NCBI GenBank assembly: GCA_046541875.1
Contig: JBKHCL010000003.1
Location: 598-64,597, forward strand
Direction of reading: 5' to 3'
DNA length: 64,000 nt
Source: Phycisphaerae bacterium
Lineage (GTDB): Bacteria > Planctomycetota > Phycisphaerae > SM23-33
Part shown: positions 3,889 through 52,401 of the stretch, piece by piece
Layout: every line of letters starts with the position of its first letter
Position numbering within the stretch: the first letter of the stretch is position 1
Program-made: the position numbers and the translations under genes
The notes under the pieces: model-generated
What the model was told of the DNA's origin: nothing
Database searches by the model: none
Seen by the model: only the letters and a program-made list of their open reading frames with translations

Positions 3889-6837
3889 ATGAAGTGGTCT
3901 CATCTGGGCACGATTCTCCTCGGGCTGGTTCTGATTGCGATTCTGGTTCCGTTGTGCCAGTTTCTCACCCAGATGACGGTCAACGTGGACGCCGAGACGT
4001 CCACGCCGGTCGCCTGGGCGGTGGGTATCGTTTTCAGTCTGTTGCTGGTGTTCGGTACGATTCGCGCGATCGCCCGGACCCGCCGGATCGACAAGCCCAA
4101 CATGGTGCTGCTGTACTGCATGCTCACGGTGGCGATCCCGGTGATGAACATCGGGCTGGTCCGCCAGGTGTACATGTCCATGCAGGCGGGCATGCACGAG
4201 TACTTTCTTAACGGGAATAACACCTACCGCACCCAGGTGAACAATCTGCGTCGCGGTTGGTTCCCGGTGGTTCCCACGCGCGAGGGGTTTGCGTGGCTCA
4301 AGGCCGATCGGCTGCTGAACTTCATGGAAGACACCGAAATGGCGTCCCAGCAGCGCAAGGCCGAGTCGAAGCTTCGGGGGCTGGTGGTCAAGGAATCGCA
4401 GGCCCGTCGCCTCCGGCAGGCCGCCACCCAGCCGGCGACCACTCAGCCGACCGCAACCCAGCCCGCGGATGCCAACGCCGCGCCGGTCGACGGGCAGGTC
4501 GACGCCAACGAGCACACCCAGGCGCTGCAGTGGGTGGCCAAGCTCCGGGCCGACCAGGCGGATGCGTTTCTCGTGGAGCGATCGCGCTGGACGTCGGTCG
4601 ATCTGAAATCGCTCGATCTGCTCAAACCGCTCCGCCGGAGGCAGCAGGAAGCCGGCCAGGTCAGCCGTGAAAACCTCCAGAAGCTCCCGGAGATGCTCAA
4701 GGGCATCGATGAACTCGAAGCCAGCCTGCTGGAGGGGAACTGGAACTCGGGTCTGATGGACCAGAGCACCCGCGAACGCCTTTTCGCCCAGTTCCCCGAT
4801 TTGCGAACCCCCGAGGCACGCCGGGAGCGGATTGCCCACTTCGCCGACCAGGCCGACCGGATTGGCCGGATGGTGGCGATGCTTACCACATCCGACCGCA
4901 CGCAGTTGCGGTCGGCGTTGATGGACGACTACCTCCAGCAGTACGCCACCATGCCGGATCATGAAGTGCGAGCCATGCAGAACCGGCTGGTGTATCGCAT
5001 GAAGACCTCTTCCCGTACGGACATGGTGAAGATGGACGGCTCGGGCGGCAAGGTCAACCAGTTCTTGGACGGGTTCCGCAACGGGCTCTGGGCGAAGCTC
5101 CAGGACAAGTCAGCCGTCAAGGAACTGACGGTCCGGGACCGCTTCGAGAAGTCGGCCGACGATCTGCCATGGCACCTCTGGGCCAAGCCGATCGTCATGT
5201 GGACGTCGCTGTTCCTGGCGATTTTCATGCTGCTGATGTGCGTCTCGGAATGGCTCCGCCGCAAGTGGATCGACCGCGAAAACCTCGCCTTCCCCCTGGT
5301 GGAAATCGCCGACACGATGATTCGTCATGACGCGGACATCGAAAACGCAGCCGACCTGTATCACCCCCAGCCTCGGAAGCGTCCGGTCAACCCGGTGTTC
5401 ATGATCGGCTTGCTGATCGGCCTGGTCTGGGTGGGCATGGAGGCGCTGGGTCATTACGGTTTCCTCACGGGCGATTACCAGGCGACGTTCAGCGTTTCCA
5501 AGGAACTGTTCACCGGCAATACGCTGAAGAACGCCGACAAGGTCTTCCTGGTGGTCTCGCCGATCATTCTGGGGCTGGGGTTCCTCATCAGCCTGGAGAT
5601 CAGCTTCTCGGTGTGGGTGATTTTCATCATCTATACGATCATCGTGATGATCGGGAAGAACACCTACCCGGACCTGAAGGACAGCCTCTTCTCCGGCTGG
5701 GCCGGCGGGAGGCAGTACCCGTTCCCGATGGCGCAGATGCTGGGGGCGTCGTTGTGCTTCTCGGCGATCGTCCTGTTCAAGACTTTCCGCGGCTCCAAGC
5801 AGGCCAAGACCACCGCCTCGGACGATTACTTCATCCCGCCTCGGCTGAACTTCATCGGAATGGTCGTGCTGCCGATCGTCATTCTCGCTCTGTTGTGGCA
5901 TCACGGGGTGGGGGAGGGCATCGTGGGCGTGCTGTTCATCGCCCTGATCGGCCTGCTGGCGTTCGTGCAGATGATCACGGCTGCCCGCGTTCGTGCGGAG
6001 ACCGGCCTGCATACCCAGCACGTCTCGTACGAGTTCACGAAGATCCCGATGGTCTTCGGTATGACCAGCCTGTTGGGTTCGCGCATCTTCTCGCTGTTCG
6101 TGACGGTGGCGTTCCTGCCGTTGACGCTGCTGTTCCGCACGATCCCACAGCACCTCGAAAACATGGAGCTGGCCAGGCGAAACAAACTGCGCCTGCGCAC
6201 GGTGGCGGTGGCGTCGCTGACGGCCTTCATCGTGGCGGTGGTCGTCGGCATGGTTGTCCTGCCGATCTGGGCGTACGCCTACGGCGGCGTCGCCTACGGC
6301 GAAGGCGCCGAGGACCAAGGTCAGACCTCGCGCACCATCGCCCACTACTCGCTGTGGATTTCGCACTACCTCGGTGAGGAGGGGCTCGACCAGTGGACGC
6401 AGGTCCACTGGATCCGCATCTGGTTCATGCTGGGCGGCTTCGGCGTGGTGGCGGTGCTGTCGCTGCTGCGAAGCCGATTCCTGCAATTCCCCCTGCATCC
6501 GATCGGATACCTGCTGATCCTGTTGAGTATCTACTACGTATGGGTGTCGCCGTATTACAAAGGAACCTCGGACGCGCCGTCCGAGTCGTCCTGGCTGTGG
6601 GGAAGTATCTTCCTGGCCTGGTTGCTCAAGAAGGTGATCATCAAGTACGGTGGCATGACCACCTACCGACGGGCCAAGCCCTTCTTTATCGGGCTGGTGG
6701 TCGGTGCGGTGCTGTGTGTGTTCCTGTTCAACGCGACGGATCTGGTCTGTTCGCTGATCGGTGCTGACGCCAAGGACCCGGGCGGATTCATCAAACCCTT
6801 CCTGGACAAGCACCCGTTCAGCCCGGCGTTCTATTGA
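3889..6837 (+). CDS. Large polytopic membrane protein, OPT-superfamily-like (982 aa), with a ~300-aa hydrophilic insertion
   Basis: GAAGGTAG RBS before the ATG. At least 14 hydrophobic helices. The N-terminal TM pair and the C-terminal segment (...GSIFLAWLLKKVIIKYGG..YRRAKPFFIGLVVGA) are collinear with the 684-aa paralog at 12766-14817. The N-terminal pattern resembles oligopeptide-transporter (OPT, TC 2.A.67) first helices; that family assignment is from memory, not a search. A Q/R/E-rich loop (aa ~100-440) contains short TQPA repeats. Confidence 0.8.
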   Translation: MKWSHLGTILLGLVLIAILVPLCQFLTQMTVNVDAETSTPVAWAVGIVFSLLLVFGTIRAIARTRRIDKPNMVLLYCMLTVAIPVMNIGLVRQVYMSMQAGMHEYFLNGNNTYRTQVNNLRRGWFPVVPTREGFAWLKADRLLNFMEDTEMASQQRKAESKLRGLVVKESQARRLRQAATQPATTQPTATQPADANAAPVDGQVDANEHTQALQWVAKLRADQADAFLVERSRWTSVDLKSLDLLKPLRRRQQEAGQVSRENLQKLPEMLKGIDELEASLLEGNWNSGLMDQSTRERLFAQFPDLRTPEARRERIAHFADQADRIGRMVAMLTTSDRTQLRSALMDDYLQQYATMPDHEVRAMQNRLVYRMKTSSRTDMVKMDGSGGKVNQFLDGFRNGLWAKLQDKSAVKELTVRDRFEKSADDLPWHLWAKPIVMWTSLFLAIFMLLMCVSEWLRRKWIDRENLAFPLVEIADTMIRHDADIENAADLYHPQPRKRPVNPVFMIGLLIGLVWVGMEALGHYGFLTGDYQATFSVSKELFTGNTLKNADKVFLVVSPIILGLGFLISLEISFSVWVIFIIYTIIVMIGKNTYPDLKDSLFSGWAGGRQYPFPMAQMLGASLCFSAIVLFKTFRGSKQAKTTASDDYFIPPRLNFIGMVVLPIVILALLWHHGVGEGIVGVLFIALIGLLAFVQMITAARVRAETGLHTQHVSYEFTKIPMVFGMTSLLGSRIFSLFVTVAFLPLTLLFRTIPQHLENMELARRNKLRLRTVAVASLTAFIVAVVVGMVVLPIWAYAYGGVAYGEGAEDQGQTSRTIAHYSLWISHYLGEEGLDQWTQVHWIRIWFMLGGFGVVAVLSLLRSRFLQFPLHPIGYLLILLSIYYVWVSPYYKGTSDAPSESSWLWGSIFLAWLLKKVIIKYGGMTTYRRAKPFFIGLVVGAVLCVFLFNATDLVCSLIGADAKDPGGFIKPFLDKHPFSPAFY

Positions 6838-6857
6838 TGCATGAAGGAGTGGTCGAC

Positions 6858-9800
6858 GTGACTCGGCGACTGATAACCTGTTGTTTGGTTCTGCTGGCTG
6901 CGTGGGCCGTTGCGCAGGGCGGCGAGCGGAACGAGAAAATCCAGAAGGACATCGATGTCCCGGTGCGAAAGCAGTTGGAGTCCTACTCGGCCCTCTCGCC
7001 CCAGGGGCTGGAGGCGCTGGACCGCGTCTCCTCCTCCGCTGCGCTGCGCGCGGAGATGGAGGAGATTCTCAAAGGCAACCTGTCCGTCGGTGCCAGGCAG
7101 GTCGATGCCAACGGCAGGGCCCATATCCACCGTTACCTGGACAGGAAGTTCGATGCGCTCTCTGAGCGGGGACTTCGGAAACTGGGCGCGATTACCGGAC
7201 AGGTGGCGGTCCCCGTTTCGATCCGCAACGCCCGCTCGCTCGGCGAGAAAGGCAACGCCCGAGGCCGATCGAGAGTGACCATCGACGGGGTGCGCTGGGC
7301 GGACGGCAACAGCTGTCACCTGCTGCCGATGTGGCCCAACGGCCCGATGCCGTCGATCTGTCCGGTCGGTGGGTTGAGCGGCCCGCTGGTGTACGTCGAA
7401 GACGGTTCGTGGGAAGCCCTGCGAGGCCTGCCCCTCGAGGGCGCCATTGTGCTGATGGACTTCCGTGGCGGACGACGCTGGGCGACACTGGCCTCCATGG
7501 GGGTTCAGGGCGTGATCGCCATCGAGGACGAGCACGTTTCCCGCGACAAGGCCGAGCGGTGGTTCGTGAATACTCCGGTCCCCTTGCCGCGGTTCTACGT
7601 GGACCGCAAACGCGGGCAGGAGCTGATCGCCCACGCCACGCGCAAGGAGTACCCCGAGAAAGGCGATCAGTGGCGCATCGTCAAAGGCAAAGCCGCCACC
7701 ATGCACGGTGGGAACGTCTACGAGCAGCGTCGCTTCGAGTCGCCCTTCGTGTACCTTCCACCCACCGAGCCGATCATTCACACGGTCATGGAGCGCGAGC
7801 TGCTCCGTCGTCTGGGCGACAAGTACGGGGTGGCCGGCGAAGACATCGCGGTGTTGAACAGGCTGGGAGACTCGCCTCCCAAGGCCGGTACCAAGCTGAA
7901 GATTCCCGGAAAGGACGAGACCTACGAAGTCAAGGAGCAGGATCTGCTCAAGCAGATCGCCGCATCTTACGAAGTCTCCCTGGACGCTCTGCTCAAGGCC
8001 AATGACCTCGATAAAGACAAGGAAGACCAGGGCATCTCGGCGGGTACGAAGCTGACGATTCCGAACATCAACCAGTCGCTGGTGATTCTCGTTCGGATTG
8101 ACAGCTGCTCGGTGGTTCCCGACGCCCCGCACGGCGCGAATGCGGCAGGCAACATCGCTTTGGCGATCAAGCTGATGGAGCATCTGGCGACCGACCCGTC
8201 GGTGATCCGGCGCAAGGGCGTGGTGTTCGGGTTCCTGGACGCCGAAGGGCTTGGTGGGCGCACCAGCCGGGCCGTTACCGAGTCGATGCTGCTGAAAGAG
8301 AACAAGCTCAAGCTTCGCCCGAAGGAAGACCCCGCCAACCGCATCAAGCGGTATCGCCAGGTGGTGGCTTGGCTGGAGGCCGACCAGAGCGGCAAGATAG
8401 GCTACGACACCGCGAAGTGGTTGGCCGACGAGTGGTTGTACTCCCGTCTGGAATCGTTGCGAATCCGTCTGGCGGAGGAGCGGACGCGCCTGCGCCGACG
8501 CTTGCGTGAGCTTCCCGAGGACTCCGCCGAAGCCAGGGAAATCGAAACCCGTCTCGACGAGATCAAGCTCCTTGTATGGGGCAAGGACCCGCGCGAAGCC
8601 GATGGCGGGCTGGTGGACCTGCGTGATGAGACCATCAAGAACACCAGCCTCTCCTATCCCGAGCGGACCAAAAGATTTCTACGGACGGTTCCCCAGACCA
8701 TCGCGGAGGCCCGCGATCAGGATATGCCCGAGCTGGCGTTGCCGACGCTCCAGGCGCGACTCAAGGCCGAGCTTGCCGAGGAACAGGAAAGCTACGATAT
8801 CTCGCAGGGCAACCTGGATGTGATCGGCAAGATCCTCGATGCGATGGTTCCCAGCAAGGATCAGCCTTCCCTCGCCTACCAACTGGACCTTGCCGACGCG
8901 ACCCATTCGCTGGGGATCGTGTCCGAGAACAAGGACTTCCGCCGCAATCACCCGGCTGCGGGGAACGCCAAGGCCTTGGCCAAGCGATACCGCAAGGTGC
9001 TGGCGTACGCAGCCGTCCAGGCGGGTTGGCCGGAAGACTTCCTTATTCTGACCAACGACGACGTGCTGCATCACGCCCTGATGAAACTCCAGTCACCGCC
9101 GATTTATCCGGAGTTCTGGGCGGGCGTGGACGTGTCGCTGTTGGCGTTGAGCACGCAGAACGATACCAAGCAGAAGCTGGACTCACCACGGGACACCCTC
9201 GATCGGGTCAAGTGGGAGAACCTGCATATCCAGGCTCGCAGCGCGATGTTACTGCTTCGGCTGGGGCTGGAAAGCCCGCTGGACTCCCTGCCTCCGGCGA
9301 AGATCAACAAGAAACCGAAATTCGGTCGTCTGACCGGCAAGATCGCCGAGTTCAACATGCGATCGGGCATTGACGCCCAGGACCCGATCGCCGGGGCCTA
9401 CGTGTACTACCCGGCCTTGAAGAAGGATCATGGCACTCACGCGCATAACACGCTCGCCTACCGCGGAGCTCGCCGCGGGATTCTGATGATCACGCCGCTG
9501 AACGGCATCTATACGCTGCCGCTGGAGGACGCCTCCTACGACGATGCCCTGTTGCTGTACTCGTATTTGCTGGACAGTGAAACAGGCCTGTTCAACAAGG
9601 TCGCCGACCAGGGGCAGATCGGCAGCCAGAGGGCAAACCCGAAGTTCAAGCTGCTGGACCTGGAGGAGACTGAAAAGAAGATCGTGCTCACCGAGGTCTA
9701 CCCGTGGATGTTCTTTCCGGGCGTGGACCCGCGGGAGTACAAGGTCGTCGGCGAGACCGAGAGTCAGTTCCACCTCGTTGACGTGGTCCGCAACGGCGAT

Positions 9801-12764
9801 CCGAAGCATTACGCCCTGGATGCTCCCCGAGGGGACTACAAGGAGCATGACCTCGACGCGGTCGTGGTCTACATGCCCAACGGTAGCCGGGCTCGGGTGG
9901 CCGTCCAGTCGGCGGTCACGACCAAGATGGTGCTCAGCGGCTGGGTGCATCCCGAGAGGTTCCGCCATCGCGGAAACGGGTACGTCATCGGCGACCTTGG
10001 CTCGAAGGAGTCCAAGGCGACGCTGATGGAATCGAAGCGTACCCAGGCCCGCGTGGAGGCCGACGTCACCGGGGAGAGCTTTGACGAGGCCGCCTGGGAG
10101 AAGGAATTCGAGGCGTGGTACCAGGCACAGATGGCCAAGCCCGGCTGGGCGCGAAATCTTACGCTGTCCCAGACGCCGCTGCACATTGCCGGGGACATGC
10201 TGATCCTGGCTGAGCGTCGTCAGCGGGTCTACAAGGAATTCGGTATCAAGGACCAGGGCGTTGCCCACGCCATCGAACGAGCCCGGGAGAAGTACGCCCG
10301 CGCCAAGGACGCCCTGAACCGCAAGGACTACCAGAGTGCCAACGGAGCCGCCCGCGAGGCGTGGGGCATCCTGATGAAGTCCTACGGACAGGTATTGGAC
10401 CTGGGTCGCGAGGCGGTCTTCTCGGTGGTGGTCCTGATGGCCCTGTTGCTGCCGGCGAGCATGTTCCTGGAGAAGCTCACTATCGGGCGGAAGGGCATTG
10501 TGGGAAAGCTGGCGGGTACGACCGTTTACTTCGTGCTGGGCACGACGTTCCTGAACTTCTTTCACCCGGGATTCAAGATCTCGGTTTCGCCGTTCATCAT
10601 CATGATCGCCTTCACGATGATCCTGATGTCGCTGATCGTGCTGATTATCTCGTATCAGCGGTTCGACGTCCTGCTTCGCCGGGCCCGCGCCGCCGGTGGC
10701 GAGGTGGAGAGCGAAGAGATCAGCCTGACCAGTTCGCTGGCGACGGCCTTGTCGATGGGCGTATCGAATCTCAAGAAACGACCGGCCCGAACGTTCCTGA
10801 CCGTTTTCACCGTAACGGTGCTGACCTTCTCGATCGTGACGTTCGTGTCGGTGCGCGGCGACGACCAGGTGGAGCTGTTGCCGCTCTCGCTGGACGAGGA
10901 TCTCTCGGGCCGCACCGTAAAGCCGATCCCGCCGAAATACCGCGGCGTGATGTTCCGCGAGTTTTTCTGGTTGACGATGGAGGACAACTTCGTGGACGCG
11001 GTGGAGACCGAGTTCGGCGCCCGCTATGACCTTGCCGTTCGCGCCCATCGCATCCAGGTGGAAGGCGGCAACAACGCCGACCGCGAAGGGATGAACCAGG
11101 AGAAGCTCACCCGGATCACGGGCACCCCGAAGAATCGCCCCACGTGGGTGGCCACCGGCATCATGGCGTTTCAGCCCGCCGAGCGGAAATTCAGTCATCT
11201 CCAACAGGCCGTCAGCAACGAGTCCTGGTTCCGCTCGGCCGACCCCATTACCGGACGGGTCGAGGACCGCGACGTAATCATCATCCCCGACAACGGGGCC
11301 GAGGCGTTGGGCATCACCGAGGAGAAGATCTTCCGTGAGGATCCCAACGGGCAGATGGTGCGTCGGGCTCACGATGAACTGCCGAAGGTGCGCCTGATGA
11401 ACCGCCAGTGGCGCGTGATCGGGATCCTCGATACGGACCTGGCCAACCGCCTGCGGGACGTCAACGGCAAGAGCCTGGCGATGGTGGACTACCTTCGCAG
11501 CGCGTTCGCCTCGGGCGCCGCCGGTGGTGGTCACCTGGCCAACGAGCCCGAATCCTACCACATGTCATGGGAAGAGCTCGTCATCGTCCCGTATGCCGCC
11601 AAGAACGACGTGAAGGCCGAGACCCGCTCGGTGGCGATCCGCCTGCGCGAGCCACAAGAGGTCACCGTCGAGCCGGGCGAGTCGCTGGCGGACCTGGCCA
11701 AGCGGTATCTGGGCAGCAAGCTACGGGCCAGGGAGATCCTCCAGGCGAACGAATCGCTCGACGACGCCGCCGACATCCAAGCCGGCATGACGGTGCAGAT
11801 TCCCGGCGACGACATGGAGACATTCCGAAACGACGTGGCCTTGCGTGTGAACAAGGCGATGTTCGGGCAGGTCGGCGGGCAGATCTCGCTGATCACGACG
11901 CAGTCCCAGCAGAGCGTAGCGGGTCTGGCGAAGGTGATCGTTCCGGTCATCCTCTGCGTTCTGATCGTTCTGAACACGATGATGGCCAATGTCGAAGAAC
12001 GTCGCGGCGAGGTGGGCATGCTCGGGGCGATCGGCCTGAGCCCGGCCCAGATCTCGTTCCTGCTTCTCAGCGAGTCGACGGTCTTCAGTGTGCTGGGGAT
12101 CGTGCTGGGCACGTTCATCGGACTGTTGTTCGCGAACGTCGCCTCGATGATCGGCATCCTGCCGGGATTGTCGTTCAACTTCACCTCGCTGCTGTCGATG
12201 GCTTTGGCGGCGGGAACGGGCATCGTGGTGTTGATCGCGACGTTGATTCCCGCCCGCAAGGCGGCGGCACTGGCGGCCCCGAGCGGCATGGCCCAGTGGG
12301 AGCTGCCCGAGCCGTCGGCCGACGGAGACATCTCCTTCGAGCTGCCCTTTACGCTCACGCGGGGCAACGCGGTGGGCATGTCCGCCTTTTTCCGTCGCTT
12401 CCTGCTGAACCACACGGACCCGGCGAGTCCGGACTTCAACTGCCGGGATATCGAGTTGTCGGTTATTGACGAACCCGACGAACAGGCCCTGCGGGTGGAT
12501 GCGGTGATGTGGCTGAGCCCGTACGATCTGGACGTGGCCCAGAAGTTCGCGCTGAAGGTGGTTCCCACCGAGAGCGAGGGCGTCTTCACGGTGGTGATTC
12601 TGCTGCACCGCACCTCCGGTACGGAGGACGCCTGGCTGCGGACCAACTACGGGTTCCTGGACCTGGTGCGCCGGCAATTCCTGCTGTGGCGCAACCTCGA
12701 CAACGATTCACGCAGCGACTACATTGCGGAAGGCGCACAGCTCTTCCAGGAGGCCGCTCAGTAA
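6858..12764 (+). CDS. Giant secreted/membrane fusion protein (~1970 aa): signal peptide, PA domain, M28/transferrin-receptor-like peptidase-like domain, LysM domains, 3-TM linker and a C-terminal FtsX/MacB-type permease module
   Basis: The track ORF starts at TTG 6834, overlapping the upstream stop. A GTG at 6858 lies 9 nt after AAGGAG and gives MTRRLITCCLVLLAAWAVAQG, a clean signal peptide. The ATG at 6837 is an alternative start. PA-like segment LEGAIVLMDFRGGRRWATLASMGVQGVIAI. M28-like segment HGANAAGNIALAIKLMEHLATDP...RKGVVFGFLDAEGLGG. LysM-like segments at aa ~320-400 (e.g. YEVKEQDLLKQIAASYEVSLDALLKANDL...GTKLTIP) and aa ~1600 (VTVEPGESLADLAKRYLG...AGMTVQIPG). FtsX TM1-like KRPARTFLTVFTVTVLTFSIVTFVSV. 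FtsX C-terminal domain VLNTMMANVEERRGEVGMLGAIGLSPAQISFLLLSESTVFSVLGIVLG followed by two more TMs. Confidence 0.85.
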   Translation: MTRRLITCCLVLLAAWAVAQGGERNEKIQKDIDVPVRKQLESYSALSPQGLEALDRVSSSAALRAEMEEILKGNLSVGARQVDANGRAHIHRYLDRKFDALSERGLRKLGAITGQVAVPVSIRNARSLGEKGNARGRSRVTIDGVRWADGNSCHLLPMWPNGPMPSICPVGGLSGPLVYVEDGSWEALRGLPLEGAIVLMDFRGGRRWATLASMGVQGVIAIEDEHVSRDKAERWFVNTPVPLPRFYVDRKRGQELIAHATRKEYPEKGDQWRIVKGKAATMHGGNVYEQRRFESPFVYLPPTEPIIHTVMERELLRRLGDKYGVAGEDIAVLNRLGDSPPKAGTKLKIPGKDETYEVKEQDLLKQIAASYEVSLDALLKANDLDKDKEDQGISAGTKLTIPNINQSLVILVRIDSCSVVPDAPHGANAAGNIALAIKLMEHLATDPSVIRRKGVVFGFLDAEGLGGRTSRAVTESMLLKENKLKLRPKEDPANRIKRYRQVVAWLEADQSGKIGYDTAKWLADEWLYSRLESLRIRLAEERTRLRRRLRELPEDSAEAREIETRLDEIKLLVWGKDPREADGGLVDLRDETIKNTSLSYPERTKRFLRTVPQTIAEARDQDMPELALPTLQARLKAELAEEQESYDISQGNLDVIGKILDAMVPSKDQPSLAYQLDLADATHSLGIVSENKDFRRNHPAAGNAKALAKRYRKVLAYAAVQAGWPEDFLILTNDDVLHHALMKLQSPPIYPEFWAGVDVSLLALSTQNDTKQKLDSPRDTLDRVKWENLHIQARSAMLLLRLGLESPLDSLPPAKINKKPKFGRLTGKIAEFNMRSGIDAQDPIAGAYVYYPALKKDHGTHAHNTLAYRGARRGILMITPLNGIYTLPLEDASYDDALLLYSYLLDSETGLFNKVADQGQIGSQRANPKFKLLDLEETEKKIVLTEVYPWMFFPGVDPREYKVVGETESQFHLVDVVRNGDPKHYALDAPRGDYKEHDLDAVVVYMPNGSRARVAVQSAVTTKMVLSGWVHPERFRHRGNGYVIGDLGSKESKATLMESKRTQARVEADVTGESFDEAAWEKEFEAWYQAQMAKPGWARNLTLSQTPLHIAGDMLILAERRQRVYKEFGIKDQGVAHAIERAREKYARAKDALNRKDYQSANGAAREAWGILMKSYGQVLDLGREAVFSVVVLMALLLPASMFLEKLTIGRKGIVGKLAGTTVYFVLGTTFLNFFHPGFKISVSPFIIMIAFTMILMSLIVLIISYQRFDVLLRRARAAGGEVESEEISLTSSLATALSMGVSNLKKRPARTFLTVFTVTVLTFSIVTFVSVRGDDQVELLPLSLDEDLSGRTVKPIPPKYRGVMFREFFWLTMEDNFVDAVETEFGARYDLAVRAHRIQVEGGNNADREGMNQEKLTRITGTPKNRPTWVATGIMAFQPAERKFSHLQQAVSNESWFRSADPITGRVEDRDVIIIPDNGAEALGITEEKIFREDPNGQMVRRAHDELPKVRLMNRQWRVIGILDTDLANRLRDVNGKSLAMVDYLRSAFASGAAGGGHLANEPESYHMSWEELVIVPYAAKNDVKAETRSVAIRLREPQEVTVEPGESLADLAKRYLGSKLRAREILQANESLDDAADIQAGMTVQIPGDDMETFRNDVALRVNKAMFGQVGGQISLITTQSQQSVAGLAKVIVPVILCVLIVLNTMMANVEERRGEVGMLGAIGLSPAQISFLLLSESTVFSVLGIVLGTFIGLLFANVASMIGILPGLSFNFTSLLSMALAAGTGIVVLIATLIPARKAAALAAPSGMAQWELPEPSADGDISFELPFTLTRGNAVGMSAFFRRFLLNHTDPASPDFNCRDIELSVIDEPDEQALRVDAVMWLSPYDLDVAQKFALKVVPTESEGVFTVVILLHRTSGTEDAWLRTNYGFLDLVRRQFLLWRNLDNDSRSDYIAEGAQLFQEAAQ

Positions 12765-20243: not shown

Positions 20244-20359
20244 TCCACGCTGGCGAGCCCCGTCTCGGCGAGATACAATCAGCCCATCGACGCATTCTCA
20301 CCCTCGGGCCTGGTGCTCGGGGGTGAGTGTATTTCCGTTTCCACAACGAGGACGTGACG

Positions 20360-23260
20360 ATGCACCTGGATCTTAACGGCCCGTGGCAGTGCGGGCTGGA
20401 CCGTCAATACGACCGGACCGCAACCGTGCCCGGGCTGGCGGGCGACCCGGCGGTGGTCACGCCCGGTGAGCTGTGGTATCGCCGCGAGGTGCATCTGCCC
20501 GAGGGCGAATGGACCCGGGCGACGCTTCGTCTCAACGGGGCACGCTTCGCCCCGCGCGTGTACGTGGATGGAGAGCAGGTCTCCGCGTCGGCCGGTGGAA
20601 TGGCCCCGACGCTCCACCGCCTGGAGCACCCCGCCGTGAAGCCCGGGGCAACCGTCACGTTGGAGATCGCCCTGACGAACCTGGACGACCTGCCGACCGA
20701 CGACGCCTCGCGCATCCCGGGGGCGGACCGCTGGCGGAGCAACATCTCCTCGTGCATCTGGGACGACGTCACGCTCATCACCCACCGCGACGCGTGGATT
20801 CGCCGGATCGACGCGAACCCCGACCTCGTCAGCCGATGCGTCGAGCTGACCTGGGACGTCGAAACGCTCGAAGATGGCCAACCGCGGGTGATCGAGTTCC
20901 GCCTGCAGGACGCCGACGGCGTGTTCGTTGCCGATTCCCGTTTCATGCTCGAAGGCCCGTGCGGCAGCGGCGTGATGGAGCTGCCCGAGCACGTCGAGAC
21001 CTGGTCGCCCGAGCATCCGACGCTCTACCGCCTGGAAGCCGCCGTCTTCGACGACGATGGCGCTATGGATGTCCGTCGGCGGAACCTTGGCCTGCGGACC
21101 TTCGAGGTCGACGGAAAGCGCTTCAAACTCAACGGGCGCGATGTGACGTTCCGGTCCGGCTCGGTGGTCTGGCACCGCTGGGTGCGGGATCCGGAATCGC
21201 ACGACCTCGCCTGGGACCTGGAATGGTTCGAGCAGAATGTCGCCCGTCGCCTGCTGTCTCACGGCGCCAACGGTCTGCGGTTCCACCTGGGCAGCCCGCC
21301 GGAGGCGTTTCTGGACCTCTGCGACCGGCTCGGGCTGCTGGTACAGGCTGAATGGCTGTTCTTCCACGGGATGAAGGCGTCGCGCGAGAGCCTCATCGAG
21401 CAGTGGGCCGCCTGGCTGGACCTCTGCCGCCGACACCCGTGCGTGGTCATTCACCACCCCTGGAACGAGACCGAGGGCGACGAGCTGAACACCGCGTTCT
21501 CGGCGATCGAGGAGCTTTCGGAGCAGTATCCGCCGCTGGTGATTTCCCATCGCGACGTTCTGCACATTCACAAATACTGGTGGAGCATGTTCGAGAACGT
21601 GGGGGTCTACTACGACGACGCCGAGCAGTTCTCCCAGCCGATCGTGGCCGACGAGTTCGGCGGCAACTACCTCGACGGGTGGTGCAACCCGGGGTTCTAC
21701 CCGGCCCTGCGGGGCAGCTTCCTGCGCTTCCTCGGGGTCAAGCAGACCGCCGCAGACCGCCTCTGGCTGCACACCGAAGCGAACGCCCGGATCGCCGAAT
21801 ATTGGCGACGGATCGGGGCGGCGGGATTCAGCCCGTTCTGCATTCTCGGCCCGCCGGAGGACGGCAACCACCACTTCCTGGGTCCGTTGGCGGAAGGCAA
21901 CCCCAAGCCCGTCTGGGACGCCCTGACCGCAGCGTATTCGCCGCGCAGCGTGAGCTTGGAGATCTGGGACCGCAACTATCGGCCGGGCGAGTTGGCCCGC
22001 GCGACGCTGCACCTGCTGAACGAGTGCGACCAGGCCCACAGACTGCCCATCGCCTGCCGCGTGGTGAACCAGACCACCGGCGAGTTCACCGGCGAGCAGA
22101 CGCTCGAACTCACGCTGCCTCCCAACTGCTCGGCCTTTGAGGACATCCAGCTTCAACTGCCCGCCGAGCCAGGCCAATACCGACTGCAGGCAGAGCTGAC
22201 CGACCCGCCCGAGACGGTGACCCACCGGGTGATCTCGCACTGGGACGTGCAGACGTTCTGGCCGGTCGTGCCCGACGGCGTTCGCTCAGCTACCGTGGGG
22301 CTCTGTGGCGACGAAAACGAACTCCGCGCGTTCTGCGAGTCGCTGGGAATCGTCACGGCCGAGGCGACCGATCCGTCGGTGGACGTGATCCTCACCGGAC
22401 AATCCTGCTGGAACCGCATCGCAGCCGGCGGGTGCAACGGGGCGGGGCTGGCTGCGGCGATCGATCGCCAAGCCGGCGTGGTCATGCTGGACGTGGGCCC
22501 GCGCGAGCTGGGGCAGGGCTACCTGGACGGTGACGACCTGGGACCGCTGCAGGGGGGCATGTACATCGCGCACCCCGACGCGGAGGAGTATCCCGTCGTC
22601 AAGGGCGTGAAGCTGCGGTTCGGCGAGCTGCCCGAGCCCGAGTCGCACATTCACCCAGCCCCGGCGGGCGAGCCGCTCTGGTGGAACCTGCCGCGCCGGG
22701 CCACCTGGTTGTGGAACGGCCTGCGGGGCGGGCTGATCGTACCCGCCCGCGACATGGAGGCGCAGGGTCTGCAGGCCGAGGCGCTGCTGGCCACGTGGAC
22801 AGCCCGCGGCGCGGACGCCGCTGCCATCCGCGCCGGCGACTACCACGCATACGAATTGGCCGGCCAATACGCATTCTCCGTCGGCGAAAGCGACGAAGTG
22901 CCCCGCGAATTGCGCCGTCGCGTGCAGTTCCTGGTGGACGACGCGCCCGCGCTGGCCGGCGCGATCAACCCGCACGCCGAGATCCTCCACCACGATCTTT
23001 CCGCGATGCTCGCCGCCGGCGACCAAGGCCAGGCCCGCACGCTCACCCCGCTGGTGAGGGCGGGAAAGGACCTCGTTCGAACTCCGGTGATCGAGATCGA
23101 ATTCGCCCCGGGGCAAGGCCGACTGATCTGCTCGCAACTGCTCACCGCCGGGCGACTGGCGGAGGGGTTCGGCAGCGAAGGACCGTTCGGCCTGCGGACC
23201 GACCCAGGCGCGCAGCAGCTTACGCTGAACCTGCTGGCCCGCGCGCTGCAACGAAGCTGA
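20360..23260 (+). CDS. Glycoside hydrolase family 2 (beta-mannosidase/beta-galactosidase-like), cytoplasmic
   Basis: N-terminal sugar-binding-domain pattern LNGPWQ...WYRREV. TIM-barrel acid/base region VIHHPWNETEG (the NE motif of GH2). GAGGA RBS before the ATG at 20360; the track ORF begins at GTG 20327. The last 144 bp of the gene are duplicated at 23911-24054. Confidence 0.85.
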   Translation: MHLDLNGPWQCGLDRQYDRTATVPGLAGDPAVVTPGELWYRREVHLPEGEWTRATLRLNGARFAPRVYVDGEQVSASAGGMAPTLHRLEHPAVKPGATVTLEIALTNLDDLPTDDASRIPGADRWRSNISSCIWDDVTLITHRDAWIRRIDANPDLVSRCVELTWDVETLEDGQPRVIEFRLQDADGVFVADSRFMLEGPCGSGVMELPEHVETWSPEHPTLYRLEAAVFDDDGAMDVRRRNLGLRTFEVDGKRFKLNGRDVTFRSGSVVWHRWVRDPESHDLAWDLEWFEQNVARRLLSHGANGLRFHLGSPPEAFLDLCDRLGLLVQAEWLFFHGMKASRESLIEQWAAWLDLCRRHPCVVIHHPWNETEGDELNTAFSAIEELSEQYPPLVISHRDVLHIHKYWWSMFENVGVYYDDAEQFSQPIVADEFGGNYLDGWCNPGFYPALRGSFLRFLGVKQTAADRLWLHTEANARIAEYWRRIGAAGFSPFCILGPPEDGNHHFLGPLAEGNPKPVWDALTAAYSPRSVSLEIWDRNYRPGELARATLHLLNECDQAHRLPIACRVVNQTTGEFTGEQTLELTLPPNCSAFEDIQLQLPAEPGQYRLQAELTDPPETVTHRVISHWDVQTFWPVVPDGVRSATVGLCGDENELRAFCESLGIVTAEATDPSVDVILTGQSCWNRIAAGGCNGAGLAAAIDRQAGVVMLDVGPRELGQGYLDGDDLGPLQGGMYIAHPDAEEYPVVKGVKLRFGELPEPESHIHPAPAGEPLWWNLPRRATWLWNGLRGGLIVPARDMEAQGLQAEALLATWTARGADAAAIRAGDYHAYELAGQYAFSVGESDEVPRELRRRVQFLVDDAPALAGAINPHAEILHHDLSAMLAAGDQGQARTLTPLVRAGKDLVRTPVIEIEFAPGQGRLICSQLLTAGRLAEGFGSEGPFGLRTDPGAQQLTLNLLARALQRS
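23117..23260. repeat. 144-bp perfect direct repeat, copy 1 (3' end of the GH2 gene, including its stop)
   Basis: The sequence GGCCGACTGATCTGCTCGCAACTG...CTGCAACGAAGCTGA recurs base-for-base at 23911-24054, as read directly from the sequence. Confidence 0.9.
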
Positions 23261-23365
23261 GATGCGAGGATGCGACAAGAAAATGTTGGCTCTGAAAACT
23301 GGGTGGCGGTCTAATCAGGTGCATGTCGCGATGGCATATATCTCCGACAGGGAAAGGAATAGAGG

Positions 23366-23725
23366 ATGACGGAAGTTCAGCAGGATCAAGGAAAACGCCG
23401 TGGCCCGGGATTTGTGTTGGCCGTGGTGGCACTGGTGCTTGGAGTAGTCGGCATGGCTGTCTCGGCCATGTCCTTCATCATGAGGGGCCCGGCGATAGTC
23501 GGCGGGCCGTTGGCGGTGATCTCCCTGATTGTCGCGATAGTGTCGTTGGTGATGGGCGCCAAGGGCAGGCGAGGTGCGGCGAGGATTGCCTTGGCTGTGT
23601 CGCTCCTGGCGATCTTTGTAAGCTTCTCGGCAGTGGTGGTCGAATGGCACCGCACAGCCAACGAGGCCGCCCAGCGGTGGCAGAAAGCCAAGGAGAGCGA
23701 AGGCGTCAGCCCTGACGACCTGTGA
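23366..23725 (+). CDS. Small integral membrane protein (119 aa, ~3 TM; DUF4190-like Gly/Ala-rich helices)
   Basis: AGGAATAGAGG RBS. Three hydrophobic helices followed by a charged tail. Lies in a ~650-bp lower-GC (~58%) segment bounded by the 144-bp direct repeats. A hairpin with a T-rich run follows the stop. Confidence 0.65.
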   Translation: MTEVQQDQGKRRGPGFVLAVVALVLGVVGMAVSAMSFIMRGPAIVGGPLAVISLIVAIVSLVMGAKGRRGAARIALAVSLLAIFVSFSAVVVEWHRTANEAAQRWQKAKESEGVSPDDL

Positions 23726-23910
23726 CCTGGCCATGAAAAAGTCCACTGGCGGACGACACTTTTCTTCCGGTGATTGGCCGCTGAAAGCGTGGGTGATTCT
23801 GGTACGTTTTGCGTGTGTCGTTGGGGTTCTCACGCCTGTCCCGCTGGCGTCGAGACCTTGAGAAACCGGCAACCCATGGTATGGCTGGTGTTGTCGGTGC
23901 TTGCTGCCAG

Positions 23911-24054
23911 GGCCGACTGATCTGCTCGCAACTGCTCACCGCCGGGCGACTGGCGGAGGGGTTCGGCAGCGAAGGACCGTTCGGCCTGCGGACCGACCCA
24001 GGCGCGCAGCAGCTTACGCTGAACCTGCTGGCCCGCGCGCTGCAACGAAGCTGA
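23911..24054. repeat. 144-bp perfect direct repeat, copy 2
   Basis: Identical to 23117-23260. It creates a chimeric track ORF (23809-24054) whose C-terminal 47 aa equal the GH2 C-terminus. Confidence 0.9.
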
Positions 24055-24077
24055 GGACCCCCAACCCCCAACTGAGG

Positions 24078-26441
24078 ATGACGATGAACCTGGACAACGG
24101 ACATTTCTCCGCCGACGGCAGAGAGTACATCATCACCGACCCCCACACGCCCCGGCCGTGGCATAATTACCTGGTCAACCGCGTGTATCTCGCGAACATT
24201 ACGCAGTACGGGAGCGGGGCGAGCTTCTATCAGCCCACCGGCGAGGGGCTCCGCGCGAACGTTACCGAAGACCCCGACGGCTCCGGCGGCCCGCGTGCGG
24301 TGTATCTGCGCGATAACGACACGGGCGAGTACTGGTCGCTGACCGGTTGGCCGGGTTGCGAACCAATGGAGCAATGGACCTGCCGCATCGGGTTGGGCTA
24401 TCAGGTGAACACATCGAGGCGGTCGGGCATCGAGGCGTCGTGGCGGGTGTTCGTCCCGCAGACCGACGACCCGTGCGAGCTGTGGACGGTGATCGTGACC
24501 AATCGCTCGGATCGGGCGCGACGGATCAGCGCGATCCCCTACGTCGAGATGCACCTCACCGGCGGCAGCACGCTGATGGACTTCATCTCCGTGCTTGGAG
24601 GTCATTACGACCCGGAGCACCGGGCCGTGTTCGGGATCAACTCGTGCGTGAAGTTTCCGGACATGTTCAAAGCGGTCTTCGCCAGCGACTCGCCCGTCGC
24701 CGGCGCCACCGTCAGCCGAGATGAGTTCATGGGCCATTATCGCGACTGCCGAAACCCGCTGGCGGTGGAGCGTGGCGACGTGCACAACCCCCAGGCGGGA
24801 ACCGAATGGCTGGGCGCGTCGCTGCGTCACGAACTGGAGCTCGCCCCGGGCGAGTCAGCCACCATTCACCTGGTCCTGGGCGTGGTCGACAGCGTCGAGT
24901 CGGGAAAGGCGATGGCGAGCAAATACCTCACCGACGGCGCCGTCGGCCGAGAGTACGACGCCTTGCGAGACCGGGCCGAGGGACTGGTCTCGCGCACGAC
25001 CGTCGCCACCGGCGATGAGCAGTTCGACCGCTGGATGAACGTCTGGCTGAAACATCAGTTGGCGTTCGTCGCCCGATGGGGCCGGGTCATCGGCCGGGGG
25101 TTCCGCGACATTCTGCAGGACACGATGGCCCACCGCATCACCGAGCCCGACGTCGCGCGGGACTGCCTGCTGGAGGTGTTCTCCAAGCAGTTTCCCTCGG
25201 GCAAGTGCATCCGCGCATGGCGGCTGCCGACGGGCATCCTGGACCTGCAGGACTACGCCGACTCGCCCAGTTGGATGATCATGGCCCTGTCGATGTACCT
25301 CAAGGAGACCGGCGACTTCTCCGTGCTGGACGAGTCGGTCCCGTTCCTGAACCCGGACGACCCCTACGCCGAGTCGACCTCCGGCGCCAGCGTCTGGGAG
25401 CACGTGGTCCTCGCCCAACGATACCTGCTGGCCGAGCGGGGCGAGCACGGACTCAGCAAGATCTACTACGGCGACTGGTGCGACACGCTCAACGGCGTGG
25501 GTGTGCGGGGACGCGGCGAAAGCGTGATGCTCTCAATGCAGGTCAAGTGGGGATGCGACCAACTCTCGGAACTGGCCGATCGGCGCGGCGACGAGGCGCT
25601 CGCGCGCGAGATGGCCGACGCATCGGCACAGCTCGACGAAGCGATCAACACCCGCGCCTGGGACGGGGAGTGGTATCTCCGCGCGTTCGACGACGACGCC
25701 GTGCCCGTGGGTACGAGCAATCCGCCGGCCGAGGACGAGGGCGAGGGGACGATCTTCCTGAACCCGCAGAGCTGGGCGCTGATCGCCGGGGTCGCCGACG
25801 ACGCCCGTGCCCACTCGGCCATCGCCGCTGTCCGCGAGCAACTGGACACCGGATACGGAAAGGTGCTCAACGCGCCGGCCTACACGCAGCTTCGCCCACG
25901 CATCGGGCAGATGTCGGCCATGACGCCGGGCTTCTACGAAAACGGAAGCGTGTACGTACACGGCAACTGCTTCTGGCTGTACGCGCTGGCCGTCGCGGGG
26001 CGGGGCGGCGAGGCGTGGGACGCCATCCGCGACATCCTGCCCGACACGCCCAATAAGCCCAATACCGACACCGAACCGTTCGTGATTCCCAACTACTACA
26101 TCGGGCCCAACGTCGAACGGCGCAGACAGCGCAACCTCTACCTCTCCGGCTGGCGGACCGGGTCGGCCGCCTGGATCTACTTCACCTGCCTCGAAGAAAT
26201 CCTCGGCCTGCGGGCGGAGTACGACGGGCTCGCGATCGATCCGCACCTGCCCGAGGGGTGGACGAATGTCTCGGCCACTCGGCCGTTCCGGGGCGATACC
26301 TATCGGATCACCCTCGAAAGCACCGGACAAACCGGGGCAGCCGTCCGGCGGATCACGATGAACGGCAAACCCGTCGACGGGACGGTCATTCCGCCCGTCG
26401 GTGATGGCGGCACGCACAAGGTGCACGTCACGCTGGGCTGA
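24078..26441 (+). CDS. Glycoside hydrolase family 94 phosphorylase (cellobiose/cellodextrin/chitobiose phosphorylase-like)
   Basis: N-terminus NGHFSADGREYIITDPHTPRPWHNYL parallels cellobiose phosphorylase (FDD..REYVITTPHTPYPWINYL). Internal YLKETGDFSVLDESVPF matches CBP YIKETGDFSILDEPVPF. C-terminal EYDGLAIDPHLP parallels EYDGLVVDPQIG. Start at ATG 24078 or 24084, with GAGGA adjacent. Confidence 0.85.
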   Translation: MTMNLDNGHFSADGREYIITDPHTPRPWHNYLVNRVYLANITQYGSGASFYQPTGEGLRANVTEDPDGSGGPRAVYLRDNDTGEYWSLTGWPGCEPMEQWTCRIGLGYQVNTSRRSGIEASWRVFVPQTDDPCELWTVIVTNRSDRARRISAIPYVEMHLTGGSTLMDFISVLGGHYDPEHRAVFGINSCVKFPDMFKAVFASDSPVAGATVSRDEFMGHYRDCRNPLAVERGDVHNPQAGTEWLGASLRHELELAPGESATIHLVLGVVDSVESGKAMASKYLTDGAVGREYDALRDRAEGLVSRTTVATGDEQFDRWMNVWLKHQLAFVARWGRVIGRGFRDILQDTMAHRITEPDVARDCLLEVFSKQFPSGKCIRAWRLPTGILDLQDYADSPSWMIMALSMYLKETGDFSVLDESVPFLNPDDPYAESTSGASVWEHVVLAQRYLLAERGEHGLSKIYYGDWCDTLNGVGVRGRGESVMLSMQVKWGCDQLSELADRRGDEALAREMADASAQLDEAINTRAWDGEWYLRAFDDDAVPVGTSNPPAEDEGEGTIFLNPQSWALIAGVADDARAHSAIAAVREQLDTGYGKVLNAPAYTQLRPRIGQMSAMTPGFYENGSVYVHGNCFWLYALAVAGRGGEAWDAIRDILPDTPNKPNTDTEPFVIPNYYIGPNVERRRQRNLYLSGWRTGSAAWIYFTCLEEILGLRAEYDGLAIDPHLPEGWTNVSATRPFRGDTYRITLESTGQTGAAVRRITMNGKPVDGTVIPPVGDGGTHKVHVTLG

Positions 26442-51134: not shown

Positions 51135-51878
51135 ATGCATACGGATCTCGGGGCGTTGCTGACGCTTCAGAACATTGAGCGTCAACTGGCACAGGTGCGA
51201 TCTCGGCTGAAACGTCGGCAGAATGCGGTCAACGTCCAGCAGAGGCGGATCGACAAGCTACAGGAAGAGTACGACGCGTTGCACGCGCGTGCGATGGAAG
51301 CCCGGAAGTCCGCCGACGCGCTGGAGTTGGGGCTCAAGAGCAAGGCCGAGAAGATTGCCCATCTGCGCGAGGCGCTCAACAACGCCAAGTCCAATAAGGA
51401 ATACGCGGCCCTGCTGACGGAGATCAACACCCACAAGGCCGACAACGCCGGGGTGGAGGAGCAGGTTCTCACGCTGATGCAGGAAGCCGAAACCATCACC
51501 GAGCAGGCCGACGAGGTCAAGCAGAAGATCGAACCCGAGCGGGAGAAGCTCGCGGAGATCCAGGCCAACTCGCAGGCCGAGATCGACAAACTCTCGGCGA
51601 TGGTTGCCGAACTGGAGAAGAAGCGCGACGCCGCGGCGGAGGGGATCTCCCCGGAGGTGATGACGGTCTTCGAGCGGATCGCCGAGCGGTACGAGGGCGA
51701 GGCGATGGCCCCGGTGGAGGTAATGGGACGCAAGCCCCCCTACGATTACGTCTGCGGAGGCTGCTACATGGCCCTGACGGCAGAGCATGCCAACGCCCTG
51801 CGGATGCGCGACGAGATCCGGCGGTGCGACAACTGCGGCCGAATCCTCTACATGGACGAAGATCCGGCCAAGACGTGA
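51135..51878 (+). CDS. Coiled-coil zinc-ribbon protein (COG1579/DUF164-type C4 zinc ribbon)
   Basis: GAAGAGGA RBS. Long coiled coil followed by a C-terminal CGGC...CDNCGRIL zinc ribbon. This family is commonly found beside rnhA. Confidence 0.8.
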   Translation: MHTDLGALLTLQNIERQLAQVRSRLKRRQNAVNVQQRRIDKLQEEYDALHARAMEARKSADALELGLKSKAEKIAHLREALNNAKSNKEYAALLTEINTHKADNAGVEEQVLTLMQEAETITEQADEVKQKIEPEREKLAEIQANSQAEIDKLSAMVAELEKKRDAAAEGISPEVMTVFERIAERYEGEAMAPVEVMGRKPPYDYVCGGCYMALTAEHANALRMRDEIRRCDNCGRILYMDEDPAKT

Positions 51879-51881
51879 GAT

Positions 51882-51903
51882 CCGCCCGCGGGCGGTTTTT
51901 TTG
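51882..51903 (+). terminator. Rho-independent terminator
   Basis: CCGCCCGCGGGCGG hairpin followed by TTTTTTTG, immediately after the stop at 51876-51878. Confidence 0.55.
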
Positions 51904-51942
51904 TGTGAGGCGGGGCTTCTTTGGCAAGGACGCGACACGGGC

Positions 51943-52401
51943 ATGAGTGAGCAAGACCTTTCTGTCATCATCCACACCGACGGCGGGGCGAGGGGCAATC
52001 CCGGACCGGCCGGGGCGGGGTTCGTTATCGTGGACGCCGCCGACAACCAGCCCATATTCGAGGGCGGACTGTTTCTCGGGCGGGCGACCAACAACGTGGC
52101 CGAGTACAAGGGTGTCATCGGCGCGCTGCGGGTGGCTTCCAGGTTGGGTGCTTCCCGCGTGACGCTCCAGAGCGACTCGCAGTTGCTGGTCCGGCAGATC
52201 AACGGGCAATATCGCGTGAAGAACGCCGGCCTCAAACCGCTCTACGAGCAGGCCAAGCAGTTGCAGGCCGGGTTCGATTCCTGCGAATTCCGCCACGTTC
52301 GTCGCGAAGAAAACACCGACGCCGACCGTCTGGTGAACCGGGCGATCGACGCGAAGAAACACGTCGAGGGTGCCGCCGACTGGGCGGACATCCTGGCGTA
52401 A
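51943..52401 (+). CDS. rnhA: Ribonuclease HI
   Basis: IHTDGGARGNPGPAGAGFVI, ...NNVAEYKG..., ...LQSDSQLLVRQINGQYRVKN... and the C-terminal DADRLVNRA are canonical RNase H motifs. Confidence 0.9.
   Translation: MSEQDLSVIIHTDGGARGNPGPAGAGFVIVDAADNQPIFEGGLFLGRATNNVAEYKGVIGALRVASRLGASRVTLQSDSQLLVRQINGQYRVKNAGLKPLYEQAKQLQAGFDSCEFRHVRREENTDADRLVNRAIDAKKHVEGAADWADILA

Follow-up and report, generated by a model that had tools for sequence, protein, structure and literature searches.

A 64,000-nucleotide stretch of DNA from a Phycisphaerae bacterium (positions 598 to 64,597 of contig JBKHCL010000003.1, assembly GCA_046541875.1; hereafter "the window") contains a GH2-like glycoside hydrolase gene, the 3' end of which is present twice. 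The two copies, R1 and R2, enclose a 649-bp insert, X, that encodes a small membrane protein, and R2 leads into a GH94 gene. The locus is probably an old, polymorphic insertion-duplication allele that is homogenised, and can be reversibly deleted, by homologous recombination. The original prediction, made from the letters of this DNA, had taken the 100% identity of the two copies to mean that the event was very recent. This dating does not hold. The same architecture is found in two other lineages (L003/L002 and L001), where X is about 10% diverged in each pair and the copies are nevertheless identical, or nearly so, within each genome. Because the repeats are homogenised within genomes, their perfect identity does not date the insertion.

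Structure of the insertion and its empty sites

The direct repeat is exact over 145 bp (R1, 23117-23261; R2, 23911-24055; both on the forward strand), the copies being 794 bp apart. A near match extends to 148 nt at 99% identity (23114-23261 and 23908-24055). Upon searching the 64-kb window, this pair was found to be the sole repeat of at least 35 nt at high identity. The perfect direct repeat described earlier is thus present, but it is 145 bp long, with a spacing of 794 bp, and not 144 bp. R1 consists of the last 47 codons of the GH2 gene, its TGA stop and one G, in agreement with the earlier statement that the last 47 codons and the stop are duplicated. R2 is an exact copy of R1 and keeps the native context of GH2 stop, spacer and GH94 start. 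The GH2 open reading frame (ORF) is intact despite the duplication of its 3' end. The five nucleotides 5' of R2 are GCCAG, as in the GH2 gene of L003, whereas the window's own GH2 gene reads GGCAA. X occupies the 649 bp between the repeats (23262-23910, forward strand). It has no similarity to the rest of the window and no second copy there.

The window's own species is represented by three metagenome-assembled genomes (MAGs), L152, L154 and L155, drawn from two or more projects, in which both flanks match the window at 99.4-99.7% identity. All three lack a stretch of exactly 794 bp compared with the window: X is absent and the repeat is present once. In L152 and L155 this single repeat has the same sequence as R1 and R2 of the window, and in L154 it has one single-nucleotide polymorphism (SNP); in all three it is followed by the same spacer context that follows R2 in the window. 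Comparison of the window with these genomes revealed no cluster of SNPs beside the site, which led to the rejection of the idea that the window's strain had recently acquired the insert from a diverged donor. The Logan contig L153 (SRR19844290), from the same species and 99.8% identical to the window, has its first base at window position 24026, so that it includes exactly the final 30 nt of R2. This length is k-1 for k=31, which we take to be Logan's setting. As a hint only, the break would fit a k=31 graph in which both the R-to-X and the R-to-spacer continuations were present in SRR19844290.

Empty sites are also found in more distant relatives, namely L083 together with the Logan contigs L084-L087 (87-89% nucleotide identity to the window), L156 (about 80% nucleotide identity), and L005 and L077 (60% and 54% amino acid identity in GH2, respectively). 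In these relatives GH94 follows GH2 within 10-30 nt and there is one copy of the GH2 tail. The precise empty sites in L152, L154, L155, L083-L087, L156, L005 and L077 bear out the earlier suggestion of an insertion with duplication of the target 3' end. One alternative that had been offered, a duplication by replication slippage, falls short, as pure slippage leaves 649 bp of unrelated DNA unexplained. The two others, the remnant of an excised element and a cassette, may yet be the origin of the insert. A metagenome scan with the N-terminus of GH94 returned only relatives at 47% identity or less. In L083 (8001-8654), and likewise in L084-L087, the GH2 gene has lost about 750 internal codons in frame, from between two "(P/K)DLV" motifs, and encodes only 217 amino acids.

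The order GH2-R-X-R-GH94 recurs in two other Phycisphaerae lineages. L001 (= L004; MAG GCA_046539005.1) has the GH2 gene, the 119-amino acid gene of X, a 57-amino acid ORF and GH94. Its 966-amino acid GH2 protein is 69% identical to that of the window (72% at the nucleotide level), and its flanks as a whole are 72-78% identical. The L001 repeat is 123 nt long with one mismatch (9774-9896 and 10574-10696). The second lineage is represented by the microbial-mat contig L002 and the MAG contig L003 (CAZYIH010000003.1), which are 91-94% identical to the window on the flanks and contain X. X itself is 89-91% identical in all three pairs formed by the window, L001 and L002, evenly over coding and non-coding parts. 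Assembly was by SPAdes for L001, by SPAdes co-assembly for L003 and by MEGAHIT (k127) for L002.

In L002 and L003, R2 equals R1 for 61-66 nt and is then fused, out of frame, to the last 100 or so codons of GH94. About 2.2 kb is deleted at this junction (L003:9747-10082 and L002:655-990; window position 23971 joined to 26147), leaving a GH94 pseudogene and retaining X. The junction is present in both assemblies, which possibly share samples. With GH2 cut in L083 and GH94 broken in L003/L002, different genes of the operon have therefore been inactivated in different lineages. L003 also has a scaffold gap of 100 N within the 119-amino acid gene (9256-9355), with a duplicated 55-nt edge (9201-9255 = 9356-9410), and the sequence directly 5' of the gap is also unlike that of L002. 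This looks like a scaffolding artefact.

Concerted evolution of the repeats and the mosaic locus of L001

R1 and R2 differ at none of 145 positions in the window, at one of 123 in L001 and at none of the surviving 61 nt in L003. Between genomes the repeat is far more variable, with 77-78% identity between the window and L001 and about 94% between the window and L003 (roughly 9 of 150 positions differ). About four substitutions that are specific to the window, relative to L003 and L083, sit in both of its copies. A duplication as old as the split of X would be expected, without homogenisation, to have accumulated 11-18 differences between R1 and R2; none is observed (P about 1e-5 or less). These comparisons show, at the level of the sequences, that the repeats are under concerted evolution by gene conversion. 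The conversion tract extends over 123 nt in L001, compared with 145 nt in the window. The original prediction had envisaged, as evidence against a recent event, an old conserved arrangement in related genomes with diverged copies. The arrangement is indeed old, but the copies are undiverged because they have been homogenised.

The L001 locus is a mosaic when compared with the window. Its GH2 gene is 72% identical, whereas X is 90.8% identical, uniformly over its 5' region, ORF and 3' region. The first 22 nt of R2 are 86% identical and match the GH2 gene of the window's clade, unlike the GH2 gene of L001 itself. They encode GRLIC(S/L)Q, a sequence native to the GH2 proteins of the window, L003, L083 and L156 (GRLVCSQ in L156), where the GH2 protein of L001 reads CGVLLLSQ. 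The other, inner 123 nt of R2 have 77% identity to the window and agree with R1 of L001 itself. The spacer agrees at 24 of 27 positions and the first 57-62 nt of GH94 at 100%, beyond which the identity of GH94 is about 80%. L083, although far closer to the window genome-wide, has a more diverged spacer than L001 and two differences in the same 57 nt. The 123-nt block of L001's own type amid window-like DNA is a direct trace of gene conversion. The simplest reading of the mosaic as a whole is that a lateral import was followed by gene conversion. The single mismatch between the L001 copies falls in the penultimate codon, which is CGG (Arg) in GH2 (9886-9888) and CCG (Pro) in R2 (10686-10688); the GH2 gene of L003 likewise has CCG at this place. 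The CCG in R2 of L001 may retain a base of the donor that lies beyond the conversion tract.

The synonymous divergence (dS) of the gene in X is 0.12-0.20 in all pairs, and 0.14-0.17 in the pairs involving the distant lineage L001. The flanks of the window and L001 differ by a dS of 0.89 in GH2 and 0.81 in GH94; by this measure X in L001 is about five to six times younger than its flanks. In the comparison of the window with L002/L003 the dS of X matches that of the flank (0.19 for GH2, window versus L003). X in the window/L003 pair is thus as old as its flanks, which fits vertical descent.

Genes and signals in the insert and its surroundings

The principal gene of X (23366-23725, forward strand) encodes, as judged by translation and hydropathy, a 119-amino acid three-helix membrane protein of an orphan family. 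Its hydrophobic segments span residues 16-39, 43-65 and 73-94, approximately. The ATG is preceded at 7 nt by AAGGA, and the GC contents of the three codon positions (0.65/0.47/0.75) are gene-like. The gene with a ribosome-binding site and three transmembrane (TM) segments that had been recognized earlier is thereby confirmed. An exact look-up of the 119-amino acid protein in the protein collection found no record, and a metagenome scan (JGI) with it found nothing. Among 5.8 billion proteins there are only two close homologs, 84% and 82% identical, both from the same GH2-GH94 locus. An exhaustive hidden Markov model (HMM) search with the alignment of the small protein gave only six matches. Three of them, P0005-P0007, resemble distant homologs and lie on short contigs in unrelated contexts; the distant homologs share the helices and the tail motif. 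P0007 (95 amino acids; L088:181-560) seems truncated: its tail motif (...EQWWEDVQQEEVLDPNDM) goes on in a different frame, as would result from a frameshift or an error in sequencing.

The ratio of replacement to silent substitution rates (dN/dS) over the whole 119-amino acid gene is 0.6-0.9. Neutral evolution, which such values would allow, was overturned by a region-wise analysis. Codons 15-61, covering TM1 and TM2, have 3-4 replacement and 6-7 silent changes (dN/dS about 0.2). Codons 62-96 have 9-12 replacement changes and one silent change (dN/dS >1), again in small counts. The TM1-TM2 core looks constrained, as far as such small counts allow. The 119-amino acid gene is probably real and used, because its core appears constrained and it has distant homologs elsewhere.

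Two further ORFs, both on the forward strand, are contained in X or extend from it. The first (23733-23861) would encode 42 amino acids (MKKSTGGRHF...). It is open in all three lineages and changes freely, with 9 of 42 residues different in L001 and a different C-terminus in L002; its status as a gene is doubtful. The second (23881-24054) is a chimera, in which 10 codons of X (MAGVVGACCQ) are in frame with the duplicated 47-codon tail of GH2, giving 57 amino acids. A chimeric ORF of 81 amino acids had been noted earlier and does exist with a TTG start (23809 to 24054). The in-frame ATG at 23881 gives the 57-amino acid version, the equivalent of which was called in L001; it has no family match. 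In L003/L002 the chimeric frame runs out of frame into the GH94 remnant. The 57-amino acid ORF is probably a by-product. All Pfam, PHROG and NCBIfam matches of the 119-, 42- and 57-amino acid products are below threshold and typical of transmembrane composition, and a family assignment was dropped for this reason. Among them is a weak match of the 119-amino acid protein to phrog_32775 (E 1e-6), whose function is not known.

The GC content of X is 59.0%, lower than that of GH2 (68%) and GH94 (66%). The visibly lower GC reported earlier is therefore real relative to the neighbors, but X is no outlier in the window: it lies about 1.9 standard deviations under the mean of 650-bp windows, and other stretches are lower still. 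GC content was consequently dropped as a signal of foreign DNA. X has no terminal inverted repeats, the longest inverted match between its ends being 6 nt, and searches with blastn of phage and plasmid collections, and of viral contigs, gave no match to it. When the ORFs of X and the window's 35 main ORFs were scanned with Pfam, no integrase, transposase, resolvase, recombinase or reverse transcriptase was detected, consistent with the earlier remark that no integrase or transposase is present. The lone RVT_3/RNase_H match in the window (51787-52401) is an RNase H domain protein.

No promoter-like site was found by a promoter scan and no Rfam family came near threshold around X; RNA folding gave z-scores of -0.6 and -1.2, that is, no fold signal. 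One compensatory pair occurs in a 5' hairpin across four sequences, which is too weak to use. The hairpin terminator that had been placed in the insert is not supported: the terminator scan gave one weak five-pair match, on the minus strand (23741-23754), where 1.2 such matches are expected by chance. This weak hairpin overlaps the start of the 42-amino acid ORF and, with its T-run, lies exactly antisense to the start codon. Its stem is kept in L001 and L002 with an altered loop, the scan level being that of chance. The layout is that of an antisense-regulated small hydrophobic peptide.

The GH2-like gene (20360-23260, forward strand) encodes 966 amino acids from the ATG at 20360, and its last 144 nt lie in R1. 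The longest ORF begins with a GTG at 20327 (20327-23260); the start at 20360, as annotated in relatives, is likely the real one. The protein matches Pfam Glyco_hydro_2, with NCBIfam matches of the beta-galactosidase/glucuronidase type under cutoff, and an exact look-up in the protein collection found no record of it. Its C-terminal 47 amino acids are conserved at 45-78% in about 40 loci from several phyla. The native GH2-GH94 spacer (24056-24083, forward strand) is 28 nt long and has GAGGA ahead of the ATG of the GH94 gene (24084-26441, forward strand). This gene encodes a cellobiose-phosphorylase-type protein of 785 amino acids with Pfam domains GH94_b-supersand and Glyco_hydro_94, which is 100% identical to P0010 of MAG GCA_046539585.1.

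The surroundings are core chromosome with glycan-utilisation genes (ABC/FtsX, GH2, GH10, GH94, dnaG, rpoD, RNase H). A very large ORF (6834-12764, 1976 amino acids) has LysM domains and a C-terminal FtsX-like permease domain. Together with more genes for FtsX and ABC ATPases it forms a cluster upstream of the glycoside hydrolases; the cluster is syntenic in L001 and L083. At the end of a zinc-ribbon/coiled-coil gene (51135-51878), a GC-rich palindrome (CCGCCCGCGGGCGG) is followed by a T-run (51858-51919). This element resembles an intrinsic terminator; the first part of the listed RNase H ORF overlaps with it.

Origin and history of the locus

In the history that we regard as probable, that of an old, polymorphic insertion-duplication allele, the ancestral operon would have consisted of GH2 followed by GH94 within 10-30 nt. 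In the clade of the window and L003, the 649-bp X would have lodged directly after the GH2 stop, together with a second copy of the last 145-150 nt or so of GH2. The duplication leaves GH2 whole and GH94 with its native upstream sequence, and the insertion would thereby be tolerable. Gene conversion between copies 794 bp apart keeps them identical within a genome as they drift between genomes, the pattern shown above. A crossover between R1 and R2 would delete X and one copy and restore the ancestral operon. Its product is seen in the three conspecific MAGs, if the change ran from occupied to empty, as we infer. The mosaic indicates that recombination in the flanks carried the allele into the L001 lineage. 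At about the time of the window/L003 split, a donor of the window's clade would have passed X, R2, the spacer and the beginning of GH94 to this lineage, whose own GH2 tail would later have overwritten 123 nt of R2. Selection on the TM1-TM2 core of the small protein may keep the allele despite its easy deletion. Candidates for the origin of X and of the first duplication are a Campbell-type circle carrying a GH2 fragment, the decay of an element like e14 at icd, and capture during break repair.

Several points weigh against this history. Every sequence used here comes from a metagenome assembly, and assembly from short reads may in principle render near-identical repeats uniform or bypass a loop bounded by repeats, the latter touching the empty sites. 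There are just three X-bearing lineages, and the tree of X is an unrooted star, so that gain and loss in the window's species are unpolarised. For L001 to have acquired the allele, recombination must have taken place across flanks diverged by 20-25%, where very low efficiency is expected. Constraint might account in part for the perfect match over the first 62 nt of GH94, L083 having only two differences there where about seven are expected. Codons 62-96 of the 119-amino acid gene outpace silent sites, although the counts are small. Finally, this history does not account for how X and the first duplication came about.

The notion that the repeat, or the placement of X in the contig, was made by the assembler draws on the three conspecific MAGs without X. 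It is very improbable, since four separately assembled sequences (the window, L001, L003 and L002) have the same architecture with different sequences, and L153 begins 30 nt before the end of R2, a break expected if both continuations are present (k=31 presumed, as above). A diversity-generating retroelement (DGR), with R1 as variable repeat, R2 as template repeat and the small gene as accessory factor, has a superficially similar layout, in that about 145 bp of a gene's 3' end recur some hundreds of bp downstream and a gene of about 120 amino acids lies between. There is hardly any chance that this is correct. The window has no reverse transcriptase, its RVT_3 match being the RNase H protein; it has zero mismatches between the repeats, hence none at adenines, and the single mismatch in L001 is C/G. 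Moreover, the small protein is a membrane protein, and the alleles with an empty site represent precise deletions. A DGR is already contradicted by the lack of both a reverse transcriptase and differences specific to adenines. A transposon or miniature inverted-repeat transposable element (MITE) was rejected because of the absence of terminal inverted repeats, the 145-bp length of the duplication, the lack of any other copy and the presence of all close homologs at one site. An integron cassette was likewise rejected: there is no integrase and no significant attC-like palindrome or fold at the ends of X, no dedicated attC model having been run.

The alternatives that invoke a mobile element deserve more consideration. 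X might be a small non-autonomous cassette aimed at the 3' end of GH2, gained recently by the window's strain, with the three lineages representing independent invasions. It could enter when a circle of 794 bp, made up of X and one repeat, undergoes a Campbell-type single crossover through host RecA, or when a recombinase supplied in trans inserts it and makes a long target duplication. This would account for X distances that form a star of about 10% whatever the distance of the hosts, for the use of the same site every time, for presence and absence among 99.5%-identical genomes without a flanking SNP tract, for repeat copies that equal the resident GH2 sequence in each genome, and for an architecture that is exactly that of a single-crossover insertion-duplication. 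It is nonetheless unlikely. The window contains no recombinase, X has neither terminal inverted repeats nor hairpin ends, and there is a single copy per genome. Among 5.8 billion proteins there are only two or three occurrences, and the viral, phage and plasmid collections have none. The young tract of L001 runs past R2 into the spacer and GH94, which a circle or a target duplication would not yield. The dS of X between the window and L002/L003 (0.12-0.20) equals that of the flank (0.19), as vertical descent predicts, and the GCCAG 5' of R2, which matches GH2 of L003 and not the GGCAA of the window, counts against fresh copying from the window's GH2. Still more doubtful is a stricter form, in which X plus one repeat is a minimal selfish cassette without a recombinase that uses the GH2 3' end as a "homology attachment site" and cycles through host homologous recombination as a 794-bp circle or fragment. 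If true, it would explain the same-site occurrence at up to about 25% divergence, the star-like phylogeny of X and the presence/absence within a species, the cassette perhaps being stabilised by its small membrane protein or proteins. The locus might, finally, be the remnant of an integrase-bearing integrative element or prophage, of the type of e14 or phage 21 at icd, which would have brought along a substitute 3' end for the gene that it entered, with R1 and R2 as attL and attR and X as the leftover of an internal deletion. Long direct repeats of a target gene's 3' end with the gene intact, the existence of precise empty sites and the weak match to phrog_32775 (E 1e-6) would agree with such an origin. 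It is nevertheless rather improbable, as there is no integrase, phage gene or gene of an integrative and conjugative element in X or within the 64 kb, X lacks similarity to phage, plasmid and viral collections, no larger version occurs in any related locus examined, and PHROG matches of this kind are typical of transmembrane composition. A decayed element concerns only the origin of the locus and is compatible with the later history of the insertion-duplication allele described above.

The arrangement has counterparts among known systems. In E. coli, e14 leaves a 163-bp icd' duplicate (PMC6379469). As with e14 and phage 21 at icd, the inserted DNA lies between direct repeats, about 150 bp long, that correspond to the 3' end of a protein gene; the gene remains intact, and loss restores a single copy (PMC6379469). 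Unlike the present locus, e14 is a 15-kb element with its own integrase, a site-specific att core and icd ends that differ at some positions, whereas here a 649-bp insert without a recombinase lies between copies that are identical and co-evolve within genomes. The order homology-insert-homology is that of a Campbell-type insertion-duplication, in which a second crossover gives the exact empty site, as seen in L152, L154 and L155. Such insertions, however, are known from the laboratory or from plasmids and depend on a donor that is circular. The present locus gives no sign of a circular form, a replication gene or an origin, and import of linear DNA by a double crossover agrees better with the mosaic of L001. 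Concerted evolution by gene conversion is exemplified by tufA/tufB and the rRNA operons. As in tufA/tufB, the copies are closer within genomes (100%, 99.2% and about 100%) than between them, and the conversion tract is bounded. Here, by contrast, one of the copies is a fragment of 145 bp, non-genic or chimeric, at a distance of only 794 bp from its donor, and the repeats also allow the DNA between them to be deleted. The likeness to a DGR (template and variable repeats) ends with the downstream repeat of a gene's 3' end and the small gene between: reverse transcriptase and adenine-specific mismatches were not found, and the protein of accessory size is a membrane protein. X resembles MITEs in being small, without a transposase and variably present among strains, but differs in having no terminal inverted repeats, a target duplication of 145 bp instead of 2-14 bp, a single copy and a single site.

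The phenomenon is of known kinds, namely insertion-duplication, concerted evolution and repeat-mediated deletion, and involves no new molecular system. Two features of the locus deserve attention in annotation, namely the orphan small membrane protein, whose core is constrained, and the chimeric 57-amino acid ORF. It provides a clear natural case in which perfect repeat identity fails to date an insertion, as conversion resets the clock, and in which these 145-bp repeats also permit the insertion to be undone. Further processes recorded at the locus are the lateral spread of a tiny insertion allele, a visible conversion tract and presence/absence within a species, in the class Phycisphaerae of the poorly studied phylum Planctomycetota.

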